Positions 2-47,372 of a stretch of DNA of 57,403 nt are shown here, one piece after another. The notes under the pieces were generated by a model. That model was not told the DNA's origin. It searched no databases and was given only the letters and a program-made list of their open reading frames with translations. Numbering within the stretch: position 1 is the first letter of the stretch; every line of letters starts with the position of its first letter. The stretch is from an uncultured virus (IMG/VR IMGVR_UViG_3300021089_000001) (lineage: Duplodnaviria > Heunggongvirae > Uroviricota > Caudoviricetes): the IMG/VR virus record IMGVR_UViG_3300021089_000001, one strand, 5' to 3'. A program made the position numbers and the translations under genes.

Positions 2-1990
2 GAATCAGACCTAAGACCATACAGAAGAGCAAATTCAGGTAACACATCAATTACTTCAAGTGTAATTGCAACGCAAGTAACAGGCGGTACATACGCATTT
101 AATATTGCTGAATCAATAGTTGGTCAAGATGCAATGTCATCTGCGTCTACTATTTCAGTAACAACTACAGCGGCTACAACAGATGCTGATATTATTGCGG
201 CAGGAATTAATGGTGCAGGAATGGTTAACGTTAGTGCAACTGTTGACAGTTTAAACAGAGTTGTAATTTCACACAATGACGGTGGTGAAATGCATATTAC
301 TGATACTGGCGGAGTGTTAGCACTTGCTGGTTTCTCAAGCACAACAACTAATATGGAATATGAGCCAGGTACAGATGCGGCAACAAATCCTAAACAATGG
401 AGAGCTTCTAACTGGAAAGTATTAACATATACAGCTTCAGCAACGGCTCCTACAGCACTTGCGGCAGATGGTCAACTTTGGTATTCTTCAATAATTGATT
501 CCGTTGATATAATGGAACACACTGGTTCTAAATGGGATGGATATTTAACTGTAAATGCAGGAACAGATCCAGCAGGACCACAAGTAAAAGCTACAGCACC
601 TACTACACAATCAGATGACACAGTACTTGTAGCAGGAGATATTTGGATTGATTCATCAGACTTAGAAAATTATCCTAAAATTAATAAATGGAATACAACT
701 TCTCTTAAATGGGTTGCAGTAGATAACAGCGATCAAACAACAGAAGATGGAGTAGTATTTGCAGATGCTAGAAGTTCAACTGCAGGTGCAGATACAACAG
801 ATGCTACAATTGTTGCTTTATTAACAAGTGATTATGTAGATACTGATGCTCCAGATCCAGCATTATATCCAAAAGGAACATTACTAGTCAACTTACGTAG
901 AAGTGGATTTAATGTTAAGAGATTTGCAAGAAATTATGTAGATACTACAGCTAGTAACGTTAGAATGGCTAACGCATCAATGAGTGGTTACTATGCTCAC
1001 AGATGGGTTACAGAATCAGCTAATAATTCAGATGGTTCTGGTGCATTTGGACGACACTCACAAAGAAAAGTTGTTGTACAATCACTTCAAGCAATGGTTA
1101 ATAGCAACCAAGATATTAGAGATGATGAATCTAGAATATTCAATTTAGTTGCGGCTCCAGGTTATCCAGAATTAATTGGAGAACTAGTTAGCTTGAATAC
1201 TGACAGAGGATTATCAGCATTTATAGTTGGTGATGCTCCATTTAGATTATCTTCAGATTCAACATCATTAAGTAATTGGGCAACAAACATTAACTCAGCA
1301 ACTGAAGACAACGACAAAGGTCTTGTAACTTCAAATGATTATCTTGGAGTATTTTATCCATCAGGATTTACAAGCGATAACTTCGGTAAAAATGTAACTG
1401 TTCCAGCAAGTCACATGATGCTTAGAACGATTGCTTTAAGCGATCAAGTTTCTTTCCCATGGTTTGCTCCAGCAGGAACTAGAAGAGGTACTATTACAAA
1501 TGCTACTTCAACTGGTTATATTAATAGCGAAGGTGAATTTACTTCATCAGCATTAAATGAAGGTCAAAGAGATACATTATATTCTAATAATGTTAATCCA
1601 ATTACTTTCATAACAGGTGCAGGTTTAGTTAACTATGGACAAAAAACTAGATCAGGTGCAACATCATCTTTAGACAGAATTAATGTTTCAAGATTAGTAA
1701 TTTACATTAGAAGTCAATTAAACAAATTGGCTAGACCTTTTGTGTTTGAACCTAATGATAAAATTACAAGAGACGAAATTAAAGCTCAAGCAGACAGCCT
1801 ATTACTTGAATTAGTAGGTAACAGAGCATTATACGACTTCTTAGTAGTGTGTGATGAATCAAATAACACACCTGCAAGAATAGACAGAAACGAACTTTAT
1901 TTAGACATAGCAATAGAGCCAGTTAAAGCAGTGGAATTTATATACATTCCATTAAGACTTAAAAATACTGGTGAAATAGCAGGTTTATAA
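2..1990 (+). CDS. Contractile tail sheath protein (T4 gp18-like), 5'-truncated by window
   Basis: Frame is open from base 2, upstream of the tracked ATG at 134; sheath C-terminal motifs PWFAPAGTRRG, LYSNNVNPI, RINVSRL, FEPND, VVCDESNN, IEPVKAVEFIYI. Confidence 0.95.
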   Translation, partial: ESDLRPYRRANSGNTSITSSVIATQVTGGTYAFNIAESIVGQDAMSSASTISVTTTAATTDADIIAAGINGAGMVNVSATVDSLNRVVISHNDGGEMHITDTGGVLALAGFSSTTTNMEYEPGTDAATNPKQWRASNWKVLTYTASATAPTALAADGQLWYSSIIDSVDIMEHTGSKWDGYLTVNAGTDPAGPQVKATAPTTQSDDTVLVAGDIWIDSSDLENYPKINKWNTTSLKWVAVDNSDQTTEDGVVFADARSSTAGADTTDATIVALLTSDYVDTDAPDPALYPKGTLLVNLRRSGFNVKRFARNYVDTTASNVRMANASMSGYYAHRWVTESANNSDGSGAFGRHSQRKVVVQSLQAMVNSNQDIRDDESRIFNLVAAPGYPELIGELVSLNTDRGLSAFIVGDAPFRLSSDSTSLSNWATNINSATEDNDKGLVTSNDYLGVFYPSGFTSDNFGKNVTVPASHMMLRTIALSDQVSFPWFAPAGTRRGTITNATSTGYINSEGEFTSSALNEGQRDTLYSNNVNPITFITGAGLVNYGQKTRSGATSSLDRINVSRLVIYIRSQLNKLARPFVFEPNDKITRDEIKAQADSLLLELVGNRALYDFLVVCDESNNTPARIDRNELYLDIAIEPVKAVEFIYIPLRLKNTGEIAGL

Positions 1991-1993
1991 TAA

Positions 1994-2001
1994 GATAAAT
2001 A
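1994..2001 (+). promoter_or_regulatory. T4-late-like promoter motif GATAAATA
   Basis: One mismatch to T4 TATAAATA, followed by AGGAG RBS and tail tube ATG; the same core recurs before many structural genes. Confidence 0.65.
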
Positions 2002-2016
2002 CTATAGGAGAAACAA

Positions 2017-2643
2017 ATGAGTATATCGACACTATCAAAGATCACAGTACCATTGAATTCTAGCCAATCAGCTAGTAATCAAGGTCTATTGATGCCTAAA
2101 TTACAATATCGTTTTAGAGTATCATTAGAAAACTTTGGTGTATCAACTCCTACAACTGAACTAACAAAACAAGTTGTTGATGTTACAAGACCTAATTTAA
2201 CTTTTGAAAACACAACAATAGATGTTTACAATTCTAAAGTATTTTTAGCAGGTAAACATACTTGGGAACCAATTACTTTAACATTAAGAGAAGATGTTGC
2301 AAATAACGTTCAAAAATTAGTTGGAGAACAACTACAGAAACAATTTGATTTCTTTGAACAATCTGCGGCGGCTTCAGGTGCAGATTACAAATTTGTAACT
2401 AGAATAGAAGTAACTGATGGTGCAAATGGTGCCAATGTAGTTAATATTTTAGAAACATATGAATTATATGGTTGCTATGTTCAATCAGCAAACTATAATA
2501 CTTTAGCATACAACTCTAGTGAACCAGTAACTGTTACGTTAGTAATGCATTATGATAATGCTATACAAACACCACAAGGTACAGGAATAGGTACGTCAGT
2601 GGGCAGAACAGTTAATACTTTAATCACTGGTGGCGGTGCATAA
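2017..2643 (+). CDS. Tail tube protein (gp19-like)
   Basis: Directly after sheath; motifs YRFRV, RPNLTFE, AGKHTWEPITLTLRED, YELYGCY typical of myovirus tube proteins. Confidence 0.85.
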   Translation: MSISTLSKITVPLNSSQSASNQGLLMPKLQYRFRVSLENFGVSTPTTELTKQVVDVTRPNLTFENTTIDVYNSKVFLAGKHTWEPITLTLREDVANNVQKLVGEQLQKQFDFFEQSAAASGADYKFVTRIEVTDGANGANVVNILETYELYGCYVQSANYNTLAYNSSEPVTVTLVMHYDNAIQTPQGTGIGTSVGRTVNTLITGGGA

Positions 2644-2673
2644 TAACAAAATTTAAAATTCCACTAATAGAGG

Positions 2674-2697
2674 AGGCGCTATGGCGCCTTTTTTATT
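2674..2697 (+). terminator. Rho-independent terminator
   Basis: AGGCGC-TATG-GCGCCT stem-loop followed by TTTTTATT. Confidence 0.8.
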
Positions 2698-2732
2698 CTC
2701 TGCCCTGTTTTTCTACTCGATAAATACTGTAT

Positions 2733-3881
2733 ATGGCAAATTTACTAAACGGATTTTTGGATAACTTAAAAAGCGGTGTCCTGTCACCAAAAGGTAATCT
2801 TGGTGATTTCGCTCACGCGGCTAGATTATATGTAGACGATAGTTTTAGACTTGCTCCAAAAGTAAAATTTTTATATCACGTAACATTTAATTTAAATAAG
2901 AATATTCCAATAGCAAATCCTCCAATATGGAAACACGGAACAGAATTGAATATGTTAGTAAAAGGTGTTGAATTACCTAAATATTCTATTGATACAGACA
3001 CAGTTTTTGCATATAATAAAAAAAGAAAAATTCACAAAAAAATTCAATATGATCCTATAAACGTTGTATTCCATGATGACAATTATGGTGTAACAACTGC
3101 ATTATGGGAATGCTATTTTAGATATTATTTTAAAGATGGTAATTATGGAGCTCTTAATACTATGGGGCATCCTGATGCAGGTATACCTAGAGAATTTAAT
3201 AGAACACAAGGAGGTCCATTTAATAGAGGAAATTCTTATTTGTCATCCACACATAATAGATATAGATTTGGTTTAGATGCAGGATCTTATGAACCATTTT
3301 TTCATAGTATTCAAATATATCAAATGGCTAGAAAAACATTTACTTGTTTTACATTAGTTAATCCTATAATTTCTAGTTGGACACATGATTCACTTCAAAA
3401 TGGAGAATCAGGTCCATTAACAAATATGATGGGCATAGAATATGAAACTGTATTTTATAGCAGAGGTAAAGTAGTTCAAGGTAGTGCACCTAAAGGATTT
3501 GCTTTAGAACATTACGATAAAACTCCAAGTCCTAATTCATTAAGTGGTGGCGGAACTACAAGTGTATTTGGTCAAGGAGGAATATTAAGTGGATTATTTA
3601 ATGACGGTACAGGACCTAACACATACATAGGCAGTCAATTAGGTGCAGGTGGAGGTAAAATGACTTTAGGAACTATTATAAGAACTGCTAATAGAATTAA
3701 AAATGCTAAAAATTTATCTAAAGGTGGATTAATGCAAGAAGGTTTTAATATACTAACAGGTGCAATTGGAAAAATAGGTGGTACATCTGATTCTTCTTAT
3801 GGTGTTGCTAATACTGTTATTGGTAGATCAGTACAAAATGTTAGAGGTGGAATAGTTAAAGCAATTAAAGGATTAAAATAA
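2733..3881 (+). CDS. Tail-tube-fold baseplate/tube initiator protein (gp48/gp54-like)
   Basis: Tube-like motifs (VELPKYSIDT, IQYDPINVVFHDD, IEYETV); GATAAATA at 2719-2726; position after tube gene. Confidence 0.55.
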   Translation: MANLLNGFLDNLKSGVLSPKGNLGDFAHAARLYVDDSFRLAPKVKFLYHVTFNLNKNIPIANPPIWKHGTELNMLVKGVELPKYSIDTDTVFAYNKKRKIHKKIQYDPINVVFHDDNYGVTTALWECYFRYYFKDGNYGALNTMGHPDAGIPREFNRTQGGPFNRGNSYLSSTHNRYRFGLDAGSYEPFFHSIQIYQMARKTFTCFTLVNPIISSWTHDSLQNGESGPLTNMMGIEYETVFYSRGKVVQGSAPKGFALEHYDKTPSPNSLSGGGTTSVFGQGGILSGLFNDGTGPNTYIGSQLGAGGGKMTLGTIIRTANRIKNAKNLSKGGLMQEGFNILTGAIGKIGGTSDSSYGVANTVIGRSVQNVRGGIVKAIKGLK

Positions 3882-3882
3882 T

Positions 3883-4251
3883 ATGTCACAAAATATACCA
3901 AGTACTACTGAAAATAATTCAGAAACTTCAGTAAAACAATTTTTTAATAAATTTTTTACAGAGACTATAACATTTCCTAGTAATCAAGTAGATGCAGTTG
4001 TAGGATTTTTTGAATCTAAAGGATTTGATAAAGTTGCTAGTATAAGCACAGCTACAATTTTATTGCAACAAGCAAAAATAGATAATGTAAATGTATTTCA
4101 ATTAATTGATACATTAAAAGGATTAGAAACAGCTAGATTAAGTTACATGGTAACAGAAGTATTAAATCATAATAGATCAAAAATTTCATCTTTAGGTTAT
4201 AAAATAACCGATTCAAACGAGGCCACTCAAAAAAGAAATATAGTGGTATAG
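3883..4251 (+). CDS. Hypothetical protein (virion module)
   Basis: 122-aa ORF tightly packed in the structural operon. Confidence 0.6.
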   Translation: MSQNIPSTTENNSETSVKQFFNKFFTETITFPSNQVDAVVGFFESKGFDKVASISTATILLQQAKIDNVNVFQLIDTLKGLETARLSYMVTEVLNHNRSKISSLGYKITDSNEATQKRNIVV

Positions 4252-4254
4252 TCC

Positions 4255-4692
4255 ATGAAGCGTTATCTAAGTGGCAAATTCAATCCTAAAAATCCTGGCA
4301 AATACATAGGTAATAGATCTCCTTTATATAGATCAAGTTGGGAATTCGCTTTCATGAGATTCTGTGATGAAAGTCCTAGTATTAGTAAATGGGCCAATGA
4401 AGCAATTAAAATTCCTTACAAACACCCTTTCACAGGAAAGTTTTCAATTTATGTTCCTGATTTCTTTATAGCATACACAGATAAAAAAGGAAAAAGCCAC
4501 GCAGAAGTTATAGAAATTAAACCTGAAAATCAAACTAAAAAAGAAAGTTTAGGTGAAAGCAAAGCTAATAAAATACACTATGTCATCAATCAAGCCAAAT
4601 GGCATTCCGCTATAGCATGGTGTAAAAACAAAGGTTTTAGATTTAGAGTTGTTAATGAGAAAGACCTTTTCCATACTGGAAGACGCGGATAA
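4255..4692 (+). CDS. Head completion nuclease (T4 gp4-like, TnsA-type PD-(D/E)XK)
   Basis: YRSSWE...W.NE...IPY...Y.PDF...EIKP signature. Confidence 0.85.
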   Translation: MKRYLSGKFNPKNPGKYIGNRSPLYRSSWEFAFMRFCDESPSISKWANEAIKIPYKHPFTGKFSIYVPDFFIAYTDKKGKSHAEVIEIKPENQTKKESLGESKANKIHYVINQAKWHSAIAWCKNKGFRFRVVNEKDLFHTGRRG

Positions 4693-4722
4693 AATTCTAA
4701 ATAAATATAGTAACATATAATT

Positions 4723-5232
4723 ATGACCAAAAAATTAGAAGAATTATTGGATTTGCCTGAATCTAAAGAAATAGTAGATGAAGAAAAAGCTAAAGAAGAA
4801 GAAAAAGCTGACATTAAAAAAGTAAAAATTGAAGACCACGAATCTACTAAAAGGAACATAGCAGAATTAGACAAAATAACATCCGCTTTACCTCAAGTAA
4901 AAGGACTAGGAGATATGACTGATACAGAGGTAAATGATATTAGTTCTAGAGCCATTGATGCATATGAAGATTTAATGGACTTAGGTATGAACGTAGAAAG
5001 TAGATATTCCTCTAGAGTATTTGAAGTAGCAGGACAAATGCTTAAAACAGCCCTAGATGCCAGGGTAGCTAAAATAGATAAGAAGCTTAAAATGGTTGAT
5101 TTACAGTTAAAGAAACAAAAACAAGACTCTAAACAGGGTGTTGATGACACTACTAACATAGTACAGGGCGAAGGATATGTCATTACTGACCGGAACAGTT
5201 TACTCGAGAAGTTGAAGAAACTGGCTAAATAA
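4723..5232 (+). CDS. Probable terminase small subunit (gp16-like)
   Basis: Helical protein with RVFEVAGQMLK motif resembling gp16 family; upstream of large terminase; late motif at about 4700. Confidence 0.55.
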   Translation: MTKKLEELLDLPESKEIVDEEKAKEEEKADIKKVKIEDHESTKRNIAELDKITSALPQVKGLGDMTDTEVNDISSRAIDAYEDLMDLGMNVESRYSSRVFEVAGQMLKTALDARVAKIDKKLKMVDLQLKKQKQDSKQGVDDTTNIVQGEGYVITDRNSLLEKLKKLAK

Positions 5233-5237
5233 TGCAT

Positions 5238-5786
5238 ATGAGCAAAAGTTTTAAAGAATATCTAGCTGAAAGTAAAAGAACTTACAATTTTAAAGTAGGT
5301 CTAGCAGGTGATCTTGCAGAAGGTACTGTTGACAAACTTGAATCAGCTATGCAGAAATACAGTGTAGTTAAAATGAGTAATGGCAAAAAAACGCCTATTC
5401 AGAAAAAAGCATTAGATTTTCCTGCATTAGAAAATACAGAAGTTACATATTTTGATATTGAAGTTGAATATCCAACAACTACTTCTGTACTTGAAGAATA
5501 TTTAAAACATACATTAGGTTTAGCTGAAAATCATATAGTAGTTAGAAAACCTGGTGACCCTTTAGTTGCTCAACAAGAAGAGCCAAAAGCAGGTGACGGA
5601 AAAGCTAATTTAGAAAGTGAATATCCTAAAGCTGATCCTAAAGCACAACAAACAGTAGGCAGTTCTAGAGTAATGGAATTACTTAAAGATTTAGAAAAAG
5701 CTAGAAAAGAAAGACCTAAAGAAGACGCGGCGGATGCCATTAAAGATATTAAGGCTCCTAAAGATGCAAAGATAATGGAGAGATAA
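5238..5786 (+). CDS. Hypothetical protein
   Basis: ORF starting MSKSFKEYLAE; CTAAATA at 5225-5231. Confidence 0.6.
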   Translation: MSKSFKEYLAESKRTYNFKVGLAGDLAEGTVDKLESAMQKYSVVKMSNGKKTPIQKKALDFPALENTEVTYFDIEVEYPTTTSVLEEYLKHTLGLAENHIVVRKPGDPLVAQQEEPKAGDGKANLESEYPKADPKAQQTVGSSRVMELLKDLEKARKERPKEDAADAIKDIKAPKDAKIMER

Positions 5787-5789
5787 AAA

Positions 5790-6260
5790 ATGGATATTAG
5801 AGATTTTATAGGTAAAGTAAACAAGATTCAAAGCAAAGAAGAAAACAGAAAAGAAGCTAATAAAGAAACGATAAAAGAGTCAGTTCAGTTTTCTATGGTT
5901 GGTGACAATCTTGGTGACATTCAAAACTTTTTACAAATTTTTAAAAACGCAGGAGTAGAAGCACCAAAAATGGATGCCGCTACTACTACACAAGACGTAG
6001 AAGATATAGTTCAACCTGAAACAGATGCTACTGAAGATAAAATTCCAGGAGATAATGAAACTAATTCACCTCATCCAGAAGTTAAAGATACAAACTTTAT
6101 GACAAAGGATATCGCAGGTGGTATTAATAAAGCTAAAAAGACTTATCCAAAAGTTTCATCTGGAGACAATCCAATGGCTATGGAACAAGAAACTGTTGAT
6201 TTTGTTGCAAAAGTTAAAGAAGATATAGCAAGTCAATACAAAGAATACAAAGCAAAGTAG
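5790..6260 (+). CDS. Hypothetical acidic protein (possible head-associated)
   Basis: 156-aa ORF with GGAG RBS. Confidence 0.55.
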   Translation: MDIRDFIGKVNKIQSKEENRKEANKETIKESVQFSMVGDNLGDIQNFLQIFKNAGVEAPKMDAATTTQDVEDIVQPETDATEDKIPGDNETNSPHPEVKDTNFMTKDIAGGINKAKKTYPKVSSGDNPMAMEQETVDFVAKVKEDIASQYKEYKAK

Positions 6261-6305
6261 TTTTCAAAACATATTCCACCCCCCAGTTTACTACTAAATA
6301 TTAGT

Positions 6306-7898
6306 ATGTCAATGAAAAGTTTAGATGGTGTATTAACCAAAAAAGCACACCTTAAGGAAAAATTTACAGAAAAACAACTAGCAGATCTCACTGAATGTAC
6401 AGATCCAGAGCAAGGGTTTAGACATTTTGCTAAAAATTATTTTCATATTCAACATCCAGTAAAAGGTAAATTACTATTCGTACCTTATGAATACCAAGAT
6501 AGACTTTTAACAAGTTATCATAATTTTAGATTTAATATTAATATGCTACCGCGACAAAGTGGTAAAACTACTTCAGCCGCTTGTTATCTATTGTGGTATG
6601 CTATGTTTCATCCAGATCAAGTTATATTAATAGCCGCACATAAATTTGCAGGCGCTCAAGAAATTATGCAACGTATTCGTTATGGATATGAATTATGTCC
6701 TGATCATATTAGAGCAGGTGTAATAAATTATAACAAAGGTTCTATGGAATTTGAAAATGGAAGTAGAATAGTTAGCACAACAACAACTACAAATACTGGA
6801 AGAGGTATGGCAATATCATTATTATATTGTGATGAGTTTGCTTTCGTAAATGCCAATATAGCTAGAGAATTTTGGACTTCTATTTCACCAACATTAGCAA
6901 CAGGAGGTAAAGCAATAGTTACATCAACTCCTAATTCAGATGAAGATATGTTTGCAACTTTATGGAAACAATCTCAAGATAAATTTGATGAACATGGTAA
7001 TGAAGCAGAACTTGGGGCAAATGGTTTTCATGGTTATACTTGTATGTGGAATGAACATCCGGATCGTGATGAAGAATGGAAACAACAAGAATTAGTTAGA
7101 ATAGGAGAAGAAAGATTTAGACGAGAATATGGTTGTGAATTTTTAGTTTATGAAGAAACTTTAATTAATAGTATTTTCTTATCAACGTTAGAAGGAAAAG
7201 AACCTATATTGAATATGGGACAAACACGTTGGTATGAAAAAATTAATTCAGAAAGTATTTACGTAATAGCATTAGATCCTGCAATGGGTACCGGTGGTGA
7301 CAATGCCGCAATCCAAGTTTATGAATTACCTAGTTACAAACAAGTCGGCGAATGGAAACATAATATGACTGGTATACCACAACAAGTTAGAATTCTAAAA
7401 GACATTTCAACTTATATAAAAGATGAATCAAGAAATCCTAATGGTTCAAATATATATTGGAGTGTAGAAAATAATACAATAGGAGAGTCAGCATTGTTAG
7501 TAATTCAAGACTTTGGTGAGGACACTATACCTGGTATGTTTGTAAATGAGCCTATTAGAAAAGGTCATATTAGAAAATTTAGAAAAGGATTTAATACAAC
7601 ACACAAAACTAAAATAAGTGCCTGTGCAAGATTAAAATCTATGATAGAAAGAAACAAAATGACAGTTCATAGTAAACCACTAATTAGTGAACTTAAATCT
7701 TATATAGCATCAGGTTCCTCTTATAGAGCTAAAACGGGTGAACATGATGACCTAGTTAGTGCATCTTTATTAGCTATGAGAATTATACAAGTATTAAAGG
7801 ATTGGGATCCTAAAGTATATACGTCATTTAGCCAGGCAGACGAGGATACAACAGAAAGAGTTATACCACTGCCGGTGTTCGCAAGTTACACAGGTTGA
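6306..7898 (+). CDS. Terminase large subunit (gp17-like)
   Basis: Walker A PRQSGKTT, Walker B LLYCDEFAF, TSTPN coupling motif, RNase H nuclease ALDPAMG and HDDLV. Confidence 0.95.
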   Translation: MSMKSLDGVLTKKAHLKEKFTEKQLADLTECTDPEQGFRHFAKNYFHIQHPVKGKLLFVPYEYQDRLLTSYHNFRFNINMLPRQSGKTTSAACYLLWYAMFHPDQVILIAAHKFAGAQEIMQRIRYGYELCPDHIRAGVINYNKGSMEFENGSRIVSTTTTTNTGRGMAISLLYCDEFAFVNANIAREFWTSISPTLATGGKAIVTSTPNSDEDMFATLWKQSQDKFDEHGNEAELGANGFHGYTCMWNEHPDRDEEWKQQELVRIGEERFRREYGCEFLVYEETLINSIFLSTLEGKEPILNMGQTRWYEKINSESIYVIALDPAMGTGGDNAAIQVYELPSYKQVGEWKHNMTGIPQQVRILKDISTYIKDESRNPNGSNIYWSVENNTIGESALLVIQDFGEDTIPGMFVNEPIRKGHIRKFRKGFNTTHKTKISACARLKSMIERNKMTVHSKPLISELKSYIASGSSYRAKTGEHDDLVSASLLAMRIIQVLKDWDPKVYTSFSQADEDTTERVIPLPVFASYTG

Positions 7899-31962: not shown

Positions 31963-32946
31963 ATGAATATCGTATATGATGCATTATTAATTCACTTACC
32001 CCAAAAAAGAAAACAAACACCTAGCGGATGGCTATCTTTTAATGCACCTTGTTGTCAGCATATGGGAACATCTGCTGATACTAGACAACGAGGAGGCTTA
32101 ATTGGCAGTGTTGATGAGGGTGTGAGTTTCCATTGTTTCAATTGTGGTTTTAAAGCAAGTTGGAGGGTTGGTAGAAATTTATCATTTAAAATGAAAAGGT
32201 TCATGAGATGGCTTAATATGCCAGATGAACAAATCACTAAATTAGCATTAGCAGTTCTGCAAATCAAAACAGATACAGTAGGGTATCAAGCAATAACACA
32301 ATTACCAAAATTTAAAAATAAAGAGCTTCCTGAAGGTGCAAAACCTTTACATGAATGGGAAGAACAAGACAAATACTTTTATCAAGTTTTAGAATATGTA
32401 GACAAAAGAAGTCTAAAGTTAGATGATTATGAGTTTCATTGGGCTAAAGGTAGTGGTTATAGAGATAGATTAATTATTCCTTTCTATTATCAATCTCGTA
32501 TAGTAGGCTATACTGCTAGAAGAGTTACTGATTCAAATAAAGTAAAATATCTATCTGAACAACAACCAGGGTATGTTTTTAACATAGATGCCCAAGATGA
32601 TGATAGAAAATTTGTAATTGCAGTAGAAGGACCTATAGATGCTATTACTATAGATAGTGTAGCATTGTTAGGAAGTGAAGTTAAAGATCAACAAGGAATT
32701 TTATTAAACAGTTTAGGTAAGCACGTCATAGTAGTACCTGACAGAGATGATGCTGGACAAAAGTTAGTTCATGATGCTATAAATTTGGGATGGAGTGTAA
32801 GTATGCCTGATTGGGATCATGATATTAAAGACATTTCTGACGCAGTTGGTAAATACGGTCGACTACATACTTTGTATGCAATTATAAAAAACGCACAGGA
32901 ATCACAATTGAAAATTAAATTAAGGATGAAAAAATGGTTTATATAA
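31963..32946 (+). CDS. DNA primase (gp61-like)
   Basis: Zn finger PCC...HCFNCG, RLIIPF, GYTAR, TOPRIM VEGPIDA and PDRDDAG. Confidence 0.9.
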   Translation: MNIVYDALLIHLPQKRKQTPSGWLSFNAPCCQHMGTSADTRQRGGLIGSVDEGVSFHCFNCGFKASWRVGRNLSFKMKRFMRWLNMPDEQITKLALAVLQIKTDTVGYQAITQLPKFKNKELPEGAKPLHEWEEQDKYFYQVLEYVDKRSLKLDDYEFHWAKGSGYRDRLIIPFYYQSRIVGYTARRVTDSNKVKYLSEQQPGYVFNIDAQDDDRKFVIAVEGPIDAITIDSVALLGSEVKDQQGILLNSLGKHVIVVPDRDDAGQKLVHDAINLGWSVSMPDWDHDIKDISDAVGKYGRLHTLYAIIKNAQESQLKIKLRMKKWFI

Positions 32947-33056
32947 AAAAATTCTTTTCGTTCTTATTTTCTCCTATAACTAAATTTCTAGAACACAGAA
33001 AGTACAAGAAGAAAGTTAAAGAACTACAGAAAAGAGATCCATTTATATACAAATAA
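32934..33056 (+). CDS. 40-aa basic protein ending ELQKRDPFIYK
   Basis: Hand-translated; fills the primase-carbamoyltransferase gap exactly. Confidence 0.55.
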   Translation: MVYIKKFFSFLFSPITKFLEHRKYKKKVKELQKRDPFIYK

Positions 33057-33057
33057 A

Positions 33058-34080
33058 ATGATAATATGGGGAATAACAGGTAATAGTCACGATGCAAGTT
33101 TAGCCGTGATGAAGTGGGGACCTAACGGTTTAACAGATCATTATAAGCTAAAACTTCTTTGGGCCGGACTATCTAGAGATTTTAGCAATATCCCAGGTGA
33201 TCCAAGTTTAAATGAGAAAATGTTAGCCTATGTTAGATCAAATCCTAGATGGGCATTCCCGGCAAAAATTATTTGGTATGAAAAACCTTTTCTAAAAAGT
33301 TTACGACAATTATACGCAGGACAAGGATCTCTGTTTCAAGAAAATAATATTAAAAAATATCTAGCTAAAGCAGGTATACATAAAGTTCCAATCGAATATG
33401 CAAAACATCATCATAGCCATGCGGCATATGGATATTTTACAGCACCTTTCTTTGAAAGAAATGCCGCAATAGTTGTATTAGATAGCATAGGAGAATTTCA
33501 AACATTTACTATATGGCACGGTAAAAGAAATCATTTAAAACAAGTATACTCACAAAGATATCCGCATAGTGTTGGATTATTTTATAGTGCAATGACACAA
33601 CGATTAGGATTTAAACCAAACGCAGAAGAATATAAAACAGAAGAACTTGCTAAAAAAGGCAACTGGAGAGTTCATTACAGAAAGTTTATGGAAGAATTAG
33701 TTCGTTCTAGAATGCCTTTTAGATTAAGAGAAAACTTACATCGAGGAGCTAATTGGTGGAGACCTGAATTAAATTCAGAAGAAGATTTAGCCAACATAGC
33801 CGCAACTACTCAACATATTTTTGAATTGACTTTAGTTAGTATTAGTGGTTGGTGCCAAACAAATATTAAAGCTGATAATGTAGTTTTTGTAGGTGGTTGT
33901 GCATTAAACAAAACTGCTATTAGTAAATTACAACATATATGGGATGACATATGGATTCCACCAAATCCAGGCGATCCAGGTTCTTGTATTGGTTCTGTTT
34001 TAACAAAGTATCCAAAACACCTTGACTTTGATCCCGATGTATGGTACAATAAGGAAAATGGAAAAATCAAGACAAAATAA
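33058..34080 (+). CDS. Carbamoyltransferase (NodU/CmcH family), N-terminal Kae1-like domain only
   Basis: HDAS, HHHSHAA, VLDSIGE, SVGLFYS, GGCALN, PGDPGSCIG; ends at 340 aa. Confidence 0.85.
   Translation: MIIWGITGNSHDASLAVMKWGPNGLTDHYKLKLLWAGLSRDFSNIPGDPSLNEKMLAYVRSNPRWAFPAKIIWYEKPFLKSLRQLYAGQGSLFQENNIKKYLAKAGIHKVPIEYAKHHHSHAAYGYFTAPFFERNAAIVVLDSIGEFQTFTIWHGKRNHLKQVYSQRYPHSVGLFYSAMTQRLGFKPNAEEYKTEELAKKGNWRVHYRKFMEELVRSRMPFRLRENLHRGANWWRPELNSEEDLANIAATTQHIFELTLVSISGWCQTNIKADNVVFVGGCALNKTAISKLQHIWDDIWIPPNPGDPGSCIGSVLTKYPKHLDFDPDVWYNKENGKIKTK
34022..34050 (+). promoter_or_regulatory. Sigma70-type promoter TTGACT-N17-TACAAT
   Basis: Inside the 3' end of the carbamoyltransferase gene; helicase ATG at 34058. 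Confidence 0.7.
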
Positions 34081-35485
34081 AGAATACGGATACGATATTC
34101 AAAAAGTTTATCTAGAAATGATGCTAGGAAATGCAGAAGCATTTATTAGATGTCAATCTATATTTAATTACAATTTATTTGATAGAAAATTACAAGGTGC
34201 GGCAGATTATCTTGACAAATATGTTGCTGAACATAATGCATTACCAACAACAGATATGATTAATGCAAATTGTAAAACAGATTTAAAAGTACCTGAAGGT
34301 CTTCACGAATCCCATTATGATTGGTTACTAGGTGACTTTGAAACATTTGTTAGACATAAAAGTCTTGAAAGAGCTATATTAAAATCTGCAGATATGTTAG
34401 AAAAAGGTGACTATGGTCCAGTTGAAGACTTGGTTAAAAATGCAGTACAAATAGGACTACACAAAGATTTAGGTACAGACTATTTTAAAGATCCAAAAGA
34501 AAGATTAATGAAATTAAAAGATCAAGCAGGTCAAGTTAGCACAGGCTGGTCAACATTAGATAGAAAACTATTTGGTGGATTTAATAAAGGTGAACTTAAT
34601 ATATTTGCAGGAGGATCTGGTGCAGGTAAATCTTTATTCCTTACAAATTTAGGTTGTAACTGGACGTTAGCAGGATTGAATATTTTATATGTTAGCTTTG
34701 AATTAAGTGAAGAATTAATATCAATGAGAATAGATAGTATGCTTACTGACATTCCTACAAAGAAAATTTTTAAAGAATTAGATGGTGTTGAAATGAAAGT
34801 AAGAATACTTGGTAAGAAATCTGGTAAATTCCAAATTAAGTATATGCCAAGTGGCAAAAATGCAAATGATTTAAGATCATTTATTAAAGAATATGAAATT
34901 AAAACACAAAGTAAAGTTGATGTATTGTTAGTTGATTATCTTGATTTGATGATGCCAATATCTAAAAAAGTATCTCCAAGTGATTTATTTGTTAAAGATA
35001 AGTTTGTATCAGAAGAATTAAGAAATTTATCAATGGAATTAGGAATTATATTTGTAACTGCATCACAATTGAACAGAGGTTCAGTTGAAGAAATAGAATT
35101 TGATCACTCACATATAGCAGGCGGTATTAGTAAAATACAAACTGCTGATAATGTATTTGGTATATTCACTAGTAGAGCAATGAGAGAACGTGGAAGATAT
35201 CAAATACAATTAATGAAAACTAGATCATCAAGTGGTATAGGTAGTAAAATTGATTTAGAATTTGACATAGATTCATTAAGAATTAGAGATTTACTTGAAG
35301 ATGAAGACGCACAAAAATATGATAAACGAGTAAGTCAAGTATACAATACATTAAAGAAAACATCACCTGAACAACCACAAACAACAGCCGTTGACCCTAG
35401 CAAAGGTACTAGAATACCACAAGCTAAAACAGAAGGCGATTCTACTAAATTGCGAGAGTTTTTATCTAATCTAGACAAAGAGTAA
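34058..35485 (+). CDS. Replicative DnaB-like helicase (gp41-like)
   Basis: STGWSTLD, GGSGAGKS, SFELSE, VDYLDLM, TASQLNR, TADNV, MKTR. Confidence 0.93.
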   Translation: MEKSRQNKEYGYDIQKVYLEMMLGNAEAFIRCQSIFNYNLFDRKLQGAADYLDKYVAEHNALPTTDMINANCKTDLKVPEGLHESHYDWLLGDFETFVRHKSLERAILKSADMLEKGDYGPVEDLVKNAVQIGLHKDLGTDYFKDPKERLMKLKDQAGQVSTGWSTLDRKLFGGFNKGELNIFAGGSGAGKSLFLTNLGCNWTLAGLNILYVSFELSEELISMRIDSMLTDIPTKKIFKELDGVEMKVRILGKKSGKFQIKYMPSGKNANDLRSFIKEYEIKTQSKVDVLLVDYLDLMMPISKKVSPSDLFVKDKFVSEELRNLSMELGIIFVTASQLNRGSVEEIEFDHSHIAGGISKIQTADNVFGIFTSRAMRERGRYQIQLMKTRSSSGIGSKIDLEFDIDSLRIRDLLEDEDAQKYDKRVSQVYNTLKKTSPEQPQTTAVDPSKGTRIPQAKTEGDSTKLREFLSNLDKE

Positions 35486-38682: not shown

Positions 38683-38683
38683 T

Positions 38684-39839: not shown

Positions 39840-40393
39840 CTAACACATTGTATAAATCTAGCAAATACATTTTCTTCAGCATAGCCATATTCTTCCATTT
39901 CAAATAGTAAAGGAGTATTACCTTTCCATTTAAAAGTATTTGTAACTTTATAAAGTTCTTCTGCTTTTATTTCTTGATTAACAATAAGTGCTTCACCATT
40001 TAATTTAAAATGAAACTTTTCACAACCTATTCCAAACTTATTGTTAAAATAATTAAATTCATTTGTAGGTGCATCTATTAAATTAGTAAAAATTATTTTC
40101 CATTCATCATCTGATACTTTAGAAAGTTCAATGGTTGCAGTTTGTTTTATAAACTTATCTTTCCAAATTTGTTTTCCTGCTATTTTTAATATGTTATGTT
40201 CTTTTATATTAATATTTGCTGTTCTAGTTATGGATCCTTTTTCCATTTGTTCTTTAGATAATTCTAATGTTGACCAACACTCTTCATCGTTCCAATATGT
40301 GTCCATAACATCTCGTAAGTCATTACTAGCAATTGAAGAATTAACTTCATCATCCGATCTTAATACAGGATAATAATCAAATTGTAATATCAT
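39824..40393 (-). CDS. Hypothetical protein
   Basis: 189-aa ORF coupled within the operon. Confidence 0.6.
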   Translation of the reverse strand: MILQFDYYPVLRSDDEVNSSIASNDLRDVMDTYWNDEECWSTLELSKEQMEKGSITRTANINIKEHNILKIAGKQIWKDKFIKQTATIELSKVSDDEWKIIFTNLIDAPTNEFNYFNNKFGIGCEKFHFKLNGEALIVNQEIKAEELYKVTNTFKWKGNTPLLFEMEEYGYAEENVFARFIQCVRWTIK

Positions 40394-40908
40394 TATTCTG
40401 CTTGTCCTATAAAATGATATATGTATTTTATTTGTTTTCCAATATTAAATCCACAATGTTCTGCATCTATTTTATCCCATTGATATACAGCACCTTGTTC
40501 TTCCATATGATAACAATCTTGTTCAACAATTAATGTACTACCCATACAAGGATTTGAAATATGACAATGATATCTAACAAAATTATCTTTTGGTACTTCA
40601 CCTATTACTTCATTTATTTCTTTATCATCAATATGAGGTGGAACACAATATCCTGTTTTCATTTCGCTAATCCAACACATAACAGGTAATACATTTAACC
40701 AATTACCAAATTCTTTATTAACATTACCAAAACCATCATGAAAGGTTTCAAAATTTATTATATTGGCAACATTCTTAAATGCCGCTTCAATTTCTTTTTT
40801 ATCTTGATAATTTGAAGGAGTTGTCTCGTATTGACGTTTTACACCGTCAAGGTTTTTGATTATCTGATTCCAATCGACTTGGAAAAACTTTCCAATATAT
40901 TTCTTCAT
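40393..40908 (-). CDS. Asp/Asn beta-hydroxylase-like Fe/2OG oxygenase
   Basis: GYCVPPHID, RYHCHI, EHCGFNIG. Confidence 0.6.
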   Translation of the reverse strand: MKKYIGKFFQVDWNQIIKNLDGVKRQYETTPSNYQDKKEIEAAFKNVANIINFETFHDGFGNVNKEFGNWLNVLPVMCWISEMKTGYCVPPHIDDKEINEVIGEVPKDNFVRYHCHISNPCMGSTLIVEQDCYHMEEQGAVYQWDKIDAEHCGFNIGKQIKYIYHFIGQAE

Positions 40909-41790: not shown

Positions 41791-41871
41791 ATGAGTGTAT
41801 TAGCAATATTTTTCACGCTAGTAGTACTAGCAGTAGTTGGCGCACTTATTGTTGTGGCAATGGAGAAGTAA
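41791..41871 (+). CDS. 26-aa membrane microprotein (MSVLAIFFTLVVLAVVGALIVVAMEK)
   Basis: Hand-translated; TAATG overlap with the protease start. Confidence 0.55.
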   Translation: MSVLAIFFTLVVLAVVGALIVVAMEK

Positions 41872-43070
41872 TGTTAGCAAGAATAGTATTCATAATCAGT
41901 TTTATATTTGTAACTACTGCAACTGCAGGTACGTTTGATTATAAAAAACAAGACTGGAAATGGGAATCTACTTTTGATAGTATAGTAGTTGTTACTGGTC
42001 AAAAAAGTGGCGAATCAATGACATTTCTGGGTCCGGACGACTCACCTAAAGGACCATTCGATAAAGACCCTTATAAAGATTTTTTTGACGAACGTGGAGA
42101 AAAACCAGAAATTATTGTTCCACCTAAAAGTTCTTTAGGAACAGGTTTCTTTATTAACGATATTCATATAGTAACAAACTATCACGTTGTTAAAAACATG
42201 GACACTTTTACAATATACACATGGAGTTTTCCATTTGCAGTAAAAGAAGTTGTGCTTATAGGATACGACGAAACAGTTGATATTGCTGTATTAGAAGTTA
42301 AAGAAAAAGTAAAACATAGTCATCTTGATTGGGCAACAAAAAATCCTATGATAGGAGATGATGTTTATGCATTAGGGCACGGTTTAAATTTAATTTGGTC
42401 ATTTACAAAAGGCATATTAAGTTATGACTATAGACCAAATCCATTGGACAGTTTTGTTCATTACTATCAAACTGATGCTGTAATAAATCCAGGAAACTCT
42501 GGGGGAGTCTTACTTAATGAACAAGGAGAAGTTATAGGTGTTAATACTCTTTTAATTTCCCCAACAGCTTATTATGTAGGTTATGGTTATTCTATTCCTT
42601 GGAAATTAGCAAAAAGAGTTGCAGAACAAATTATTCAAGTAGGTCATCATACTAAACCTAGCATAGGAATACAAATGGGAATAATAGATGACAAAGAATT
42701 ATTTGTACAATTAACTGGTAGAGGCATAGAACATTTTTTAGAAATTAAAGAAGTTATGCCAGATTCGGCGGCAATGAGATTTGGATTAATGGCTGGTGAT
42801 ATAATAGTTTCTATGGACAATGCTCCTATTAAAGTAGTACCTGATGTAATAGAAGTGTTATGGTCAAAAATGCCTGGAGACTCTGTAGACTTTGTAGTTT
42901 ATAGAAATTATGAATACATAAGCCTTTCTGTAATATTAGGACGAGTAGAAGTAGAAGTTACAGAAATGATAGATGTTGAAGAACTATATGATGAAGAAGA
43001 AGAATTAGAAGAAGAATTAGAAGAGCAAGAAGAAATACTAGTACCACAAGAGGAAAAAACTACATGGTAA
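41871..43070 (+). CDS. HtrA/DegP-family serine protease with PDZ domain and signal peptide
   Basis: GTGF, TNYHVV, DIAVL, QTDAVINPGNSGG; PDZ (SAAMRFGLMAGDII); acidic tail. Confidence 0.92.
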   Translation: MLARIVFIISFIFVTTATAGTFDYKKQDWKWESTFDSIVVVTGQKSGESMTFLGPDDSPKGPFDKDPYKDFFDERGEKPEIIVPPKSSLGTGFFINDIHIVTNYHVVKNMDTFTIYTWSFPFAVKEVVLIGYDETVDIAVLEVKEKVKHSHLDWATKNPMIGDDVYALGHGLNLIWSFTKGILSYDYRPNPLDSFVHYYQTDAVINPGNSGGVLLNEQGEVIGVNTLLISPTAYYVGYGYSIPWKLAKRVAEQIIQVGHHTKPSIGIQMGIIDDKELFVQLTGRGIEHFLEIKEVMPDSAAMRFGLMAGDIIVSMDNAPIKVVPDVIEVLWSKMPGDSVDFVVYRNYEYISLSVILGRVEVEVTEMIDVEELYDEEEELEEELEEQEEILVPQEEKTTW

Positions 43071-44003: not shown

Positions 44004-44110
44004 TTAATCCAAAAATTCAAAAAGAAATCAACAGACAAAAATATTTTACTTTAGGAGCGTTAATAATTATGGTAATAGTAATTGGTATTACGCTTTACAT
44101 AGTCGGTTGA
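44000..44110 (+). CDS. 36-aa membrane microprotein
   Basis: MINPKIQKEINRQKYFTLGALIIMVIVIGITLYIVG; ATGA overlap. Confidence 0.55.
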   Translation: MINPKIQKEINRQKYFTLGALIIMVIVIGITLYIVG

Positions 44111-44135
44111 CTTTACACTAAAAATATAATACAAT
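44107..44135 (+). promoter_or_regulatory. Sigma70-type promoter TTGACT-N17-TACAAT upstream of the GS-ICL-L33 unit
   Basis: Direct read; ATG at 44142 follows. Confidence 0.6.
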
Positions 44136-44262
44136 TCAATTATGGTATTAAAGATTCTTACTAAAAACATACAAACAGTAGGACGCCAAAAGAGAGAGCA
44201 GAAAGAAATAGAAGAATTCGCGGCAAAAATAGCACAACAACAAGACACAGGAGTAATAAATT

Positions 44263-44520
44263 ATGGCAAAGAAAAAAGTAAAAGAACATTACGTGAAAAA
44301 ACTTCTTAAATCTTTAGATCTTAAACGTAATAAAAAAGCAACACACAAAGTTATTAATATTAATAACTACGAAAGATTTTGGGAAGATTCTACACCTAGA
44401 GGTCATCAAATTAGAATCGTATGTCAAGATAATTCAACATTACATATAAATTTAAATTGGCCTAAAGGTTACAATCCTAGACTACACAAAGTAGATCCTA
44501 AAAGATGGAATATATCTTAA
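44263..44520 (+). CDS. Basic hypothetical protein
   Basis: 85 aa, AGGAG RBS. Confidence 0.6.
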   Translation: MAKKKVKEHYVKKLLKSLDLKRNKKATHKVININNYERFWEDSTPRGHQIRIVCQDNSTLHINLNWPKGYNPRLHKVDPKRWNIS

Positions 44521-44527
44521 TGAGTGT

Positions 44528-45532
44528 ATGCAAAAAACAAAACTAGAATACGTTTGGCTAGACGGTTACAAGCCTGAACCTACCTTACGATCAAAAGTAA
44601 AAGTAATAGATAGAATGGTAACATCCATTGAGGAAGTTCCTCTATGGGGCTTCGATGGATCTAGCACACAACAAGCAAAAGGTTCCGAATCAGATTGCAT
44701 ATTGCAACCTGTAAAATTATTTAAAGGTCCTTTTGAATCGGACTGGTTAGTATTATGTGAAGTACTAAACAAAGATAACACAACACACGAATCTAATTCT
44801 AGAAGTCAAATTGTTTCATCTACTGAAAAAGATTATTGGTTTGGCTTTGAACAAGAATATACATTTATGATGGGTGAATTTCCTTTAGAGTGGCCTATTG
44901 AAGGTGAACCTAAAGAACAAGGAGATTATTATTGTGGAGTAGGTGCATCTAACATAGGTAAAACAGGAAGAAGAATAATGTTTGAGCACGTTGATAATTG
45001 TATAACAGCAGGTGTATCTATACACGGAACAAACGCAGAAGTAATGTTAGGACAATGGGAATATCAAGTGTTTGGTAAAGGTGGAAAAAATGCGGCTGAT
45101 AATGCCTGGATGGCACGTTATATACTTTATAGAACAGCAGAAAAATATGGAATAGATATTAACATCGAACCTAAACCTATTAAAGGAGATTGGAACGGTA
45201 ATGGTATGCATACTAATTTTTCAAATTCTGCATTAAGAGATCAAGGTGGTAAAGGAGTTATTACTAACATTTGTGAAAAAATGAAACCTTTACACAAATC
45301 ACATATTGCAGTATATGGTAGCAAAAATGATGAACGCTTAACAGGATTACACGAAACTCAACATATTGACAAATTTAGTTATGGAGAGTATGATAGAGGT
45401 GCAAGTATTAGAGTTCCTATGATAACAATTAATAATAATTACAAAGGTTATTTAGAAGATCGAAGACCAGCCGGCAATGCTGATCCTTACAAAGTCGTTA
45501 ACCGTATTATAACAACAATAGAACATCAATAA
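44528..45532 (+). CDS. glnII: Glutamine synthetase type II
   Basis: EYVWLDG, LRSK, WGFDGSST.QA, FGFEQEY, YYCGVG, NAEVMLGQWEYQ, GDWNGNGMHTNFS, RLTGLHET, RGASIRVP, YLEDRRPAGNADPY; 334 aa. Confidence 0.93.
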   Translation: MQKTKLEYVWLDGYKPEPTLRSKVKVIDRMVTSIEEVPLWGFDGSSTQQAKGSESDCILQPVKLFKGPFESDWLVLCEVLNKDNTTHESNSRSQIVSSTEKDYWFGFEQEYTFMMGEFPLEWPIEGEPKEQGDYYCGVGASNIGKTGRRIMFEHVDNCITAGVSIHGTNAEVMLGQWEYQVFGKGGKNAADNAWMARYILYRTAEKYGIDINIEPKPIKGDWNGNGMHTNFSNSALRDQGGKGVITNICEKMKPLHKSHIAVYGSKNDERLTGLHETQHIDKFSYGEYDRGASIRVPMITINNNYKGYLEDRRPAGNADPYKVVNRIITTIEHQ

Positions 45533-46800
45533 TGGATTCAATAATGAAAAATGTTCTCCCTTTAATGGATTGGAATTCTAATAGATGGGACGGCATTATC
45601 AGACCTTACTCTCAGAAAAGCGTAGAAAAATTACGTGGTACTGCTAACATTCAATATACTCTTGCTGAAAGAGGATCAAGAAACCTTTGGTATAAACTAA
45701 AAGAATTACCTTACGTAAGTTCCTTGGGTGCTCTTACAGGTAACCAAGCACTACAACAAGCCAAAGCAGGATTAGATGCTGTATATTTGTCAGGGTGGCA
45801 AGTGGCGGCAGATGCAAATACAACAGACGAAATGTATCCAGACCAGTCATTATATAATACTGAAAGTGTTCCTCGCATACTTAAAAAAATTAATAATACA
45901 TTTATTCGTGCAGATCAAATTCAACATATGGAAGGTAAAGAGAACATAGATTATTTTTTACCTATCGTAGCAGATGCTGAATCAGGATTTGGTGGTGTAT
46001 TGAATACACACGAAGTATTCAAACATATGATTAGAGAAGGTGCATCAGGAGTACACTTAGAAGATCAATTGTCTTCAGCAAAAAAATGTGGACACATGGG
46101 TGGAAAAGTTTTAGTACCTACTAGCGAAATGATTGAAAAACTTGTAGCGGCTAGACTTGCCGCGGACATTATGAAAGTTCCATTAGTAATAATTGCAAGA
46201 ACAGATTCACTTGCTGGTGCTTTAATTAGAAGTGATCACGACGAAGTAGATCAAAAATTTATAACAGGTGAACGAACTGCTGAAGGATTCTTTAGAGTAA
46301 AAGCTGGAATGGATCAAGCAGTTGCTCGTGGACTTGCATATGCTCCATATAGTGATTTAGTATGGATGGAAACTAGTAACCCAGACATCGGAGAAGCTAA
46401 AGAATTTTGTATAGAAGTACGTAAAAAATTTCCAAATAAGATGTTTGCATACAATTGTTCCCCGTCATTTAATTGGAAAGCTAAACTAAATGACAAACAA
46501 ATAAGAAACTTTAAAGACGAATTAGGAGAGATTGGTTGTAAATTTCAATTTATTACACTTGCAGGATTTCACGCATTGAATCATAGTATGTTTGATTTAG
46601 CTAGTAAATATAAAGAAACAGGCATGACTGCTTTCGTTGAACTACAACAAAAAGAGTTTGCGGCGCAGGCACAAGGATTTACAGCAGTTAAACATCAAAG
46701 AGAAGTTGGTGCAGGATACTTTGATGAAGTATCAAAACTAGTTACAGGCAGTAGTACGTTAAGTGCTTTAGAAGGATCAACTGAAGAAGAGCAATTTTAA
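45532..46800 (+). CDS. aceA: Isocitrate lyase
   Basis: YLSGWQVAADAN, MYPDQSLY, PIVADAESGFGG, EDQLSSAKKCGHMGGKVL, ARTD, AYNCSPSFNW, KHQREVGAGYFD, GSTEEEQF. Confidence 0.96.
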   Translation: MDSIMKNVLPLMDWNSNRWDGIIRPYSQKSVEKLRGTANIQYTLAERGSRNLWYKLKELPYVSSLGALTGNQALQQAKAGLDAVYLSGWQVAADANTTDEMYPDQSLYNTESVPRILKKINNTFIRADQIQHMEGKENIDYFLPIVADAESGFGGVLNTHEVFKHMIREGASGVHLEDQLSSAKKCGHMGGKVLVPTSEMIEKLVAARLAADIMKVPLVIIARTDSLAGALIRSDHDEVDQKFITGERTAEGFFRVKAGMDQAVARGLAYAPYSDLVWMETSNPDIGEAKEFCIEVRKKFPNKMFAYNCSPSFNWKAKLNDKQIRNFKDELGEIGCKFQFITLAGFHALNHSMFDLASKYKETGMTAFVELQQKEFAAQAQGFTAVKHQREVGAGYFDEVSKLVTGSSTLSALEGSTEEEQF

Positions 46801-46805
46801 AGTTT

Positions 46806-47141
46806 ATGAGCAAAGAACAATTAAAAAGAATTGACGAAATAGAAGAACAAATTGAAACTTTAGAAGACAGTTTAAGAACTGTTAAAAAAGTTACACCGTT
46901 GCACGACCGTACTTGGTTTGTAAAATGGATTTCAGTAGGATTAATTTGTGCCGCGGTACTATGTAGATCTGTAGAAGAAGTACCAAAGATGTATGATGTA
47001 ATATTTTCTGCATTAGGTACTGCAGGTTGGTTGTACGTTGGGTTTTCTTGGCACGACAGAGCATTAATAGTTTTAAACACAATACTATTATCAATGTTAG
47101 CAACAGGATTATTTAGGTATATTATACAATGGACAATGTAA
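46806..47141 (+). CDS. Small multi-pass membrane protein
   Basis: Three hydrophobic segments; WHDRALIVLN. Confidence 0.65.
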   Translation: MSKEQLKRIDEIEEQIETLEDSLRTVKKVTPLHDRTWFVKWISVGLICAAVLCRSVEEVPKMYDVIFSALGTAGWLYVGFSWHDRALIVLNTILLSMLATGLFRYIIQWTM

Positions 47142-47156
47142 AGAAAAATTATTTTA

Positions 47157-47372
47157 ATGCCAGCAGATAAACCAAAAACAAAACGACCTTATACTAAAGT
47201 AAGAATGGTTCCTGAAGATTCTAAAATGAAGGATCACGCATTTTATTATTATGCATTTAAACCTGGTAAGGGTGAAAAGAAAAATATGAAATTAAGAATG
47301 CGAAAGTATGATCCAGTTACCAAAAAACATATTTGGTGGGTCGAGAAAAAATTACCACCTCACGCTCCTTAA
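47157..47372 (+). CDS. rpmG: Ribosomal protein bL33 homolog (zinc-free type)
   Basis: KVRMV...FYYY..K...KLRMRKYDPVTKKHIWWVEKK matches the bL33 pattern KLELKK(Y/F)DPVxRKHVxxxE. Confidence 0.8.
   Translation: MPADKPKTKRPYTKVRMVPEDSKMKDHAFYYYAFKPGKGEKKNMKLRMRKYDPVTKKHIWWVEKKLPPHAP

Follow-up and report, generated by a model that had tools for sequence, protein, structure and literature searches.

A family of marine jumbo myophages with glutamine synthetase II and isocitrate lyase as putative optional cargo of a clpP-rpmG operon

We analyzed a 57,403-nucleotide stretch of DNA from an uncultured virus of the class Caudoviricetes (IMG/VR record IMGVR_UViG_3300021089_000001; hereafter, the window), in which genes for a type II glutamine synthetase (GSII; glnII), an isocitrate lyase (ICL; aceA) and ribosomal protein bL33 (rpmG) lie in one probable operon. 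The window is only part of the phage genome, so negative results for it do not cover the rest. An earlier note on this DNA had proposed that the two enzymes are coupled and jointly rewire carbon and nitrogen flux; comparison with related phages indicates instead a new arrangement of known phage genes, not a fixed two-enzyme module. The interpretation we favor, which we regard as rather probable, is that of a marine jumbo myophage family with a leaderless operon read by host sigma70, in which metabolic cargo is swappable and the enzymes are useful singly rather than as an obligate module. The gene orders of relatives suggest that the backbone of the family operon is promoter-clpP-rpmG, with glnII and aceA as optional cargo.

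The gene orders were drawn from a survey of aceA that used the best 80 of 178 viral ICL matches, with fetched flanks only. Loci with aceA of at least 83% identity (window's own-strain copies excluded) were classed as close; these 64 loci formed 47 groups at 97% DNA identity, 39 of which were informative in having readable upstream DNA. In the informative groups glnII was adjacent to aceA in 13, near it in 2 and not in the flank in 24, and all of the adjacent cases fell among groups with at least 86% aceA identity (13/30, as against 0/9 at 83-86%). The pair thus recurs within the family, but of the 77 viral aceA loci that were more distant, none had an adjacent glutamine synthetase (GS), and only one (L172) had a GS within 2 kb. 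The commonest aceA neighbor in this phage family is clpP, not glnII, and the usual layout in relatives is clpP-orf80-[glnII]-aceA-rpmG. Directly after aceA comes rpmG, in 22 of 27 informative groups at or above 86% identity and in 1 of 10 below it. When 26 viral loci were anchored on rpmG instead, clpP was present in 16, glnII in 4 and aceA in 3; two loci had both enzymes, and one of these was the window's own strain. Versions of the locus with GS only (L414, L415), with ICL only and with neither enzyme were found, and glnII of the same clade adjoins a helicase gene in L007 and L008.

The history of the two genes also argues for cargo that comes and goes. The genome of a close relative (G003/L087) is for the most part collinear with the window, at ~90-96% identity, but carries a deletion that removes glnII and nearly all of aceA, leaving the last ~55 nt of aceA as a remnant behind orf85 (Table 1). 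The identical junction occurs in a second contig (L408), and both may stem from one campaign. From this allele and its remnant it follows that the pair was present in the common ancestor with G003/L087 and that it is dispensable. All GS alleles adjacent to ICL belong to one clade (support 1.0), so the glnII-aceA link probably arose once. Since then the genes seem to have had differing genealogies: at the same locus glnII is about twice or more as diverged as aceA (dS 0.90 vs 0.50 in L097 and 0.78 vs 0.25 in L277), and identity between the window and L277 is 69-87% along glnII and 92-100% along much of aceA. In the ICL tree, loci that carry glnII are scattered among loci that lack it, within a close ICL clade that received support of 0.996 and 99.2 in two computations. 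This pattern would fit free recombination and repeated loss of the enzymes, and with adjacency in only a third of the informative groups, separate losses and discordant gene histories, the proposed GSII-ICL unit is not supported.

Table 1. Coordinates of the operon, its deletion allele and its phage context in the window.
Feature	Position	Strand	Basis
sigma70-type promoter, TTGACT-17-TACAAT, positioned for a leaderless transcript	44107..44135	+	conservation in relatives
orf55, first operon gene; clpP occupies this place in most relatives	44142..44309	+	ORF call
orf85	44263..44520	+	ORF call
glnII, type II glutamine synthetase, 334 aa	44528..45532	+	family, PDB matches, motifs
TAATG stop/start overlap, glnII/aceA	45530..45534	+	sequence
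aceA, short (E. coli-type) isocitrate lyase, 422 aa, KKCGH at residues 184-188	45532..46800	+	profiles, motifs
DUF6552 membrane protein, optional insert between aceA and rpmG	46806..47141	+	PF20189
rpmG, putative divergent cysteine-free ribosomal protein bL33, 71 aa	47157..47372	+	Pfam, Atlas, PDB, fold
Stretch deleted in close relative L087/G003; last ~55 nt of aceA kept	44509..46744		alignment
Context: tail sheath, tail tube, head closure, terminase (T4-like jumbo myophage)	134..7898	+	family matches
Context: primase and DnaB helicase, behind promoters of the operon's class	31963..35485	+	contiguous with operon in G001

Both enzymes are encoded by full-length reading frames with intact catalytic motifs, as the earlier note had stated, and sequence comparison predicts that both are active. 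The ICL scored above the NCBIfam equivalog cut-offs (690 bits vs 562 for NF011645; 555 vs 276 for TIGR01346) and is not a methylisocitrate lyase (prpB score 93 against a cut-off of 354). It aligns over its full length to solved short-type ICLs (7cmx, 6lrp) with the KKCGH loop intact, and it retains SGW, the metal-binding acidic residues and NxSPS. For the GS we required ~330-370 aa, a beta-grasp plus catalytic domain and greater proximity to GSII than to GSI or GSIII, and the protein has all three; its best family is GlnII (NF041605; 381.8 bits, vs 51.1 for GlnA and 32.6 for GSIII). All 16 PDB matches at E<=1e-20 are named glutamine synthetase (344-423 residues), the best being 4bax and 2d3a at full length. 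Motifs for metal, glutamate and ATP binding are kept (FDGSST, EQEY, NAEV/GQWE, WNGNGMH, RLTGLHET, RGASIR, EDRRP), and the identical protein occurs on 17 contigs. In both enzymes we presume that the conserved residues have the catalytic and ligand roles usually assigned to them.

The 71-aa product of the last gene is probably a divergent, cysteine-free bL33. It passed the Pfam cut-off (PF00471, 27.6 vs 25) and fell below those of TIGR01023 (20.3 vs 23.95) and NF001860, but Atlas placed it in viral L33 clusters (0.97), and all 24 PDB matches of an alignment profile were L33 chains. Its predicted structure, of low confidence (mean pLDDT 56.9), has four strands, and a fold search with this low-confidence model returned ribosomal chains as its top 13 matches (Z 3.6-5.4; rmsd 1.9-4.9 over 44-65 residues). 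The genes glnII, aceA and rpmG are intact and under purifying selection, with dN/dS of ~0.2 for glnII, 0.07-0.16 for aceA (against alleles of at least 90% identity) and 0.05-0.23 for rpmG. The probable operon also holds three genes that the title of the earlier note left out. One of these, orf55, had no family match in profile searches and is also found in L087, L277 and L317; orf85 had no match in Pfam, PHROG or Atlas, and homologues occur outside this operon (L438-L442). The DUF6552 gene is missing in most relatives, where aceA directly overlaps rpmG.

The promoter proposed in the earlier note stands, although its consensus score does not establish it: matches to the consensus occur at chance level (32 in the window vs 33.9 +/- 7.2 in shuffles). 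We judge it real because the hexamers are conserved across relatives and because of the spacing to the ATG. Upstream of orf55 the hexamers are kept in L277 and L317 though the spacer differs, and in L087 they are identical. Among 29 distinct regions upstream of clpP, 23 match TTGnCn-16/18-TAnnnT and the other six have TAGACA, all right before the ATG. The -10 box of the window's operon ends 6 nt before the first ATG (44142), as it does at the primase and helicase promoters, and 7 of 9 TTGAC-17-TAnnnT sites on the plus strand of the window are followed by an ATG after 6-7 nt. These features suggest leaderless early or middle transcription. Promoters of this putatively leaderless type stand at window positions 24271, 31928, 34022, 44107, 47812 and 52787 (+), including those of primase and helicase.

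The TAATG overlap that had been read as translational coupling of glnII and aceA is present, but it is not special. Overlaps of 1 or 4 nt occur at 20 of 69 same-strand junctions in the window, and in relatives a TAATG-type overlap also joins clpP to aceA (2 loci) and aceA to rpmG (23 loci), so we rejected it as a sign of partnership. Transcription was sought in three RNA libraries, and in all three there were contig pieces that matched the operon exactly or nearly so. A piece of 478 nt spans orf85-glnII, library X17 has zero depth over 34000-40512, and pieces in library X15 are spread over the whole stretch. Expression of the operon in these libraries is a hint, not proof, and a single operon transcript would be expected from the gene arrangement.

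We envision the system as follows. Host sigma70 would read an early or middle operon from the leaderless promoter, and in the stable frame from promoter and clpP to rpmG, metabolic genes would slot in between, linked by stop/start overlaps; here the slot would hold glnII and aceA. GSII is not known to be under adenylylation control. The phage enzyme could make glutamine, which donates the amide group for nucleotides and amino sugars, without being subject to the adenylylation that controls the host's type I GS, a control described in the available text of PMC1821046. The ICL would split isocitrate into succinate and glyoxylate, and host malate synthase could complete the bypass and refill C4 intermediates. 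Each enzyme would be beneficial alone; together they would be co-expressed and complementary, but not obligate. Induction of host aceA and aceB in one virocell (PMC7082346) and of host glnA in two pelagiphage infections (PMC12753301) makes each function plausible on its own.

Several points weigh against our preferred reading of optional cargo on a leaderless operon. The single GS clade, with the pair kept over 13 groups, could mean real synergy. The counts of loci lacking glnII refer to the fetched flanks, and with same-clade glnII next to a helicase gene in L007 and L008, some genomes may carry glnII and aceA unlinked. The GS falls below the curated NF041605 cut-off (381.8 vs 500 bits) and so belongs to a divergent GSII branch outside the equivalog. 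RNA depth was only 2-8, the contigs are strandless and DNA carry-over is possible; and in the three libraries no listed piece spans the glnII-aceA junction by 31 nt on each side.

Among the alternatives, the one that survives best, though we think it unlikely, is that glnII and aceA are a co-selected carbon and nitrogen module, in which GSII drains glutamate and 2-oxoglutarate without feedback while an ICL bypass keeps the tricarboxylic acid (TCA) cycle turning. A rationale for pairing AceA with GS is found in the available text of Smith et al. (2013), who proposed for Pelagibacter, with host enzymes, a PII- and AceK-independent scheme in which a constitutive bypass lets GS/GOGAT drain 2-oxoglutarate (PMC3870248). 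The recurrence of the pair among groups of at least 86% identity, the retention of the slot in L277 with a differing glnII allele (GS 71%, ICL 93% identical) and the loss of both genes together in one relative are all consistent with such a module. The lack of adjacent pairs in groups at 83-86% and in distant viral loci argues against it, as does the existence of GS-only and ICL-only versions. A single lineage of origin means that there was no independent convergence, and the bypass also cuts the supply of 2-oxoglutarate. The joint rewiring suggested in the earlier note thus keeps a published SAR11 rationale, but the coupled unit it presupposes is not supported by the relatives. A bolder form of this idea, which we offer only tentatively and consider doubtful, is that lineages loading both genes impose a feedback-free carbon and nitrogen state, in which unregulated glutamine synthesis is buffered by a forced glyoxylate bypass, through a leaderless, Shine-Dalgarno-free clpP-rpmG operon that a widespread marine jumbo-phage family would use as a platform for host takeover. 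If true, it would be the first viral copy of the PII-/AceK-independent scheme proposed for SAR11, and the full, half and empty alleles would serve as a natural test.

The earlier note had also suggested that glyoxylate feeds glycine and thereby purine synthesis in a glycine-limited SAR11-type host, with glyoxylate from ICL, glycine from a host aminotransferase and amide nitrogen from GS. Evidence on the likely host bears on this. The phage ICL clade sits on a long stem (support 100), and no cellular ICL in the genomes sampled exceeded 66% identity; alphaproteobacteria-like genomes reached at most 63%. In two genomes judged SAR11-like (1.2 Mb, 30-31% GC), AceA was 59-60% identical and formed a separate long branch, not sister to the phage clade but part of a larger group (support 93.9) that takes in ICLs of viruses and of alphaproteobacteria-like genomes. 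A small-genome gammaproteobacterial order, apparently SAR86-like, had ICL at 59-60% in 28 of 121 genomes, the rest having long-type ICL or no match. Cellular GS was at best 57% identical in 400 gammaproteobacteria-like genomes and ~60% to proteins named Planctomycetota or Bacteroidota, and ClpP gave a flat 60-65% against cellular proteins. These low, flat identities defeated our attempt to infer the host from gene donors; neither aceA nor glnII traces to SAR11-like cells, and a SAR11-type host finds no backing here.

With respect to the glycine route itself, malate synthase is missing from the window, as previously noted, and lies within 5 kb of aceA in none of the 64 close loci, as against 7 of the 77 distant ones, a point in favor of this route. 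It gains a little, too, from genes for GMP reductase or purine phosphoribosyltransferase next to aceA, seen at three of the 64 close loci and five of the 77 distant ones; the available text of PMC3870248 proposes an AceA-AspC route to glycine in Pelagibacter, and that of the SAR11 sources describes a glycine dependence that is genus-wide in Pelagibacter (PMC10030771; 10.64898/2026.04.03.716430; PMC2864753). The same SAR11 sources nevertheless indicate that malate synthase is common in SAR11. No enzyme converting glyoxylate to glycine, and no glyoxylate aminotransferase in particular, was identified in the operon, the purine neighbors are genes of salvage and interconversion rather than of de novo synthesis, the SAR11-like AceA is distant, and GC content of family loci ranges from 0.31 to 0.49. 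We therefore consider this route distinctly improbable. Two candidate enzymes of glyoxylate metabolism gave no support: the class III aminotransferase of the window was considered as a possible glyoxylate transaminase, but comparison yielded no such assignment, and an apparent glyoxylate reductase next to aceA in three relatives was a formate dehydrogenase.

The phage context of the operon is well defined. Genes for head closure, the terminase and the sheath and tube of the tail, together with those for SSB, UvsX, helicases and primase, identify a T4-like jumbo myophage, and the best match of the terminase (53% identity) is in the PA5oct/Paride group. A complete 328-kb relative (G004), with a terminase 55% identical, carries bL33 and ClpP, and searches of that genome for ICL, GS and malate synthase gave no match. 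A separate record (G001) is 99.9% identical over window positions 17375-57375 and contains the operon in one piece with the helicase and primase genes; across the operon, near-identity to the window was also seen in L001 and L256, and the diverged phages L277, which is syntenic, and L097 have the same gene order. At least 0.91 of sampled window words were present in 11 DNA runs from nine other studies, codon use of the operon genes agrees with that of phage core genes (r 0.86-0.92), and searches of the window for tRNA genes and Rfam families gave no match. An assembly chimera, or neutral host DNA trapped in a phage contig, is thus extremely improbable: the one raw-read DNA run tested (X21) lacked the phage and hence provided no read-level bridge, but the three further near-identical assemblies, the shared gene order of diverged phages, cellular matches of at most 66% (ICL) and ~60% (GS) in the samples searched, phage-like codon use and dN/dS far under 1 all speak against it. 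The linkage of the enzymes to phage genes is therefore upheld, and the operon is in all likelihood phage-borne, a chimera being very unlikely.

Other features of these loci were recorded. The window contains a 12-kb block of glycosyltransferase, methyltransferase and sugar epimerase genes (13028-25589) inserted between uvsY and a UvsW-like helicase, and on the minus strand a cluster of divergent class III aminotransferase and 2-oxoglutarate/Fe oxygenase-like genes (35994-40908). An HtrA-type protease gene (41871-43070) lies upstream of the operon, and in L089 HtrA directly precedes clpP and rpmG, suggesting a protease-rich region. A conserved clpP-rpmG operon was seen in L413, L416-L418, L422, L426-L428 and L430-L434 (GC 0.34-0.49). 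In L098 (9180-9300, 10001-11660), aceA has the inverted orientation, with a full rpmG on one side and a second, 3' fragment of rpmG on the other, which suggests local inversion or duplication. In an unrelated viral locus (L172:7769-13395), clpP is followed in turn by genes for malate synthase, ICL (aceA), phosphomannomutase, an amidase and GS; this is the only second case of aceA near GS among the loci surveyed. Repeatedly found by phage aceA (L268, L269, L301, L099-L101, L145, L156) are genes for a Bmp-type binding protein, GMP reductase and purine phosphoribosyltransferase. In other relatives a gene of one-carbon metabolism adjoins aceA, for an NAD-dependent formate dehydrogenase (L286:9473-10666) or a homocysteine methyltransferase (L305:3932-4990). 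In phage C48C1 (L005; OQ984149.1, 44175-45416), an ICL 51% identical is annotated as a hypothetical protein.

Phage ICL, GS and bL33 have each been published already, and since each gene is known from phages the type of finding is unsurprising; it is as a natural experiment that it has value. Within a single abundant family of marine phages the operon occurs with both enzymes, either or neither, and a near-isogenic deletion allele is among the versions, so that one can test whether auxiliary metabolic genes sited together are co-selected as modules or merely share a good promoter. Viral GSII and ICL alleles become available for complementation, and a conserved, probably leaderless clpP-rpmG operon emerges. 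In the literature searched, which covered few subscription papers, neither a glnII-aceA-rpmG nor a clpP-rpmG operon of phages was described.

Several known systems resemble parts of this one. For huge phages, the Huge Phage Genome Collection (bioRxiv 10.1101/2025.02.27.640493) reports 248 GS genes and 98 ICL genes, only 22 of which are accompanied by malate synthase, and the view that ICL is an unusual phage gene was accordingly overstated; the main text of that study treats ICL and GS separately and describes neither operon, although genomes of this kind may appear in its Supplementary Tables 10 and 11. GS is also described in another jumbo phage lineage in the available text of PMC12619734, and PMC3379637 offers background on marine GSII. 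The Pseudomonas jumbo phages PA5oct, MIJ3 and Paride share the T4-like jumbo architecture and the terminase similarity given above, but they are distant and not among the nine phage-collection records matching the ICL. According to the available text of Mizuno et al. (2019; PMC6375957), bL33 genes occur commonly in viral contigs from aquatic samples, and their product is presumed exchangeable on ribosomes; the protein described here is longer than the matched 50-55-aa bacterial chains and ends a clpP/metabolic operon. GS and ICL are both auxiliary genes of marine viruses beneath the Ross Ice Shelf (PMC10721903), where the available text places them unlinked in separate viruses, GS with a putative SAR86 host and ICL with Pelagibacter and Woeseiales. 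An ICL is also present in TARA_ERS478052_N000008, a large T4-like marine phage with surface-sugar genes (Nishimura et al., 2017; PMC5332604, available text), in which malate synthase stands beside aceA (aceBA); that glyoxylate-shunt layout was not found in the window or within 5 kb of aceA in the 64 close loci, and here aceA lies between glnII and rpmG.

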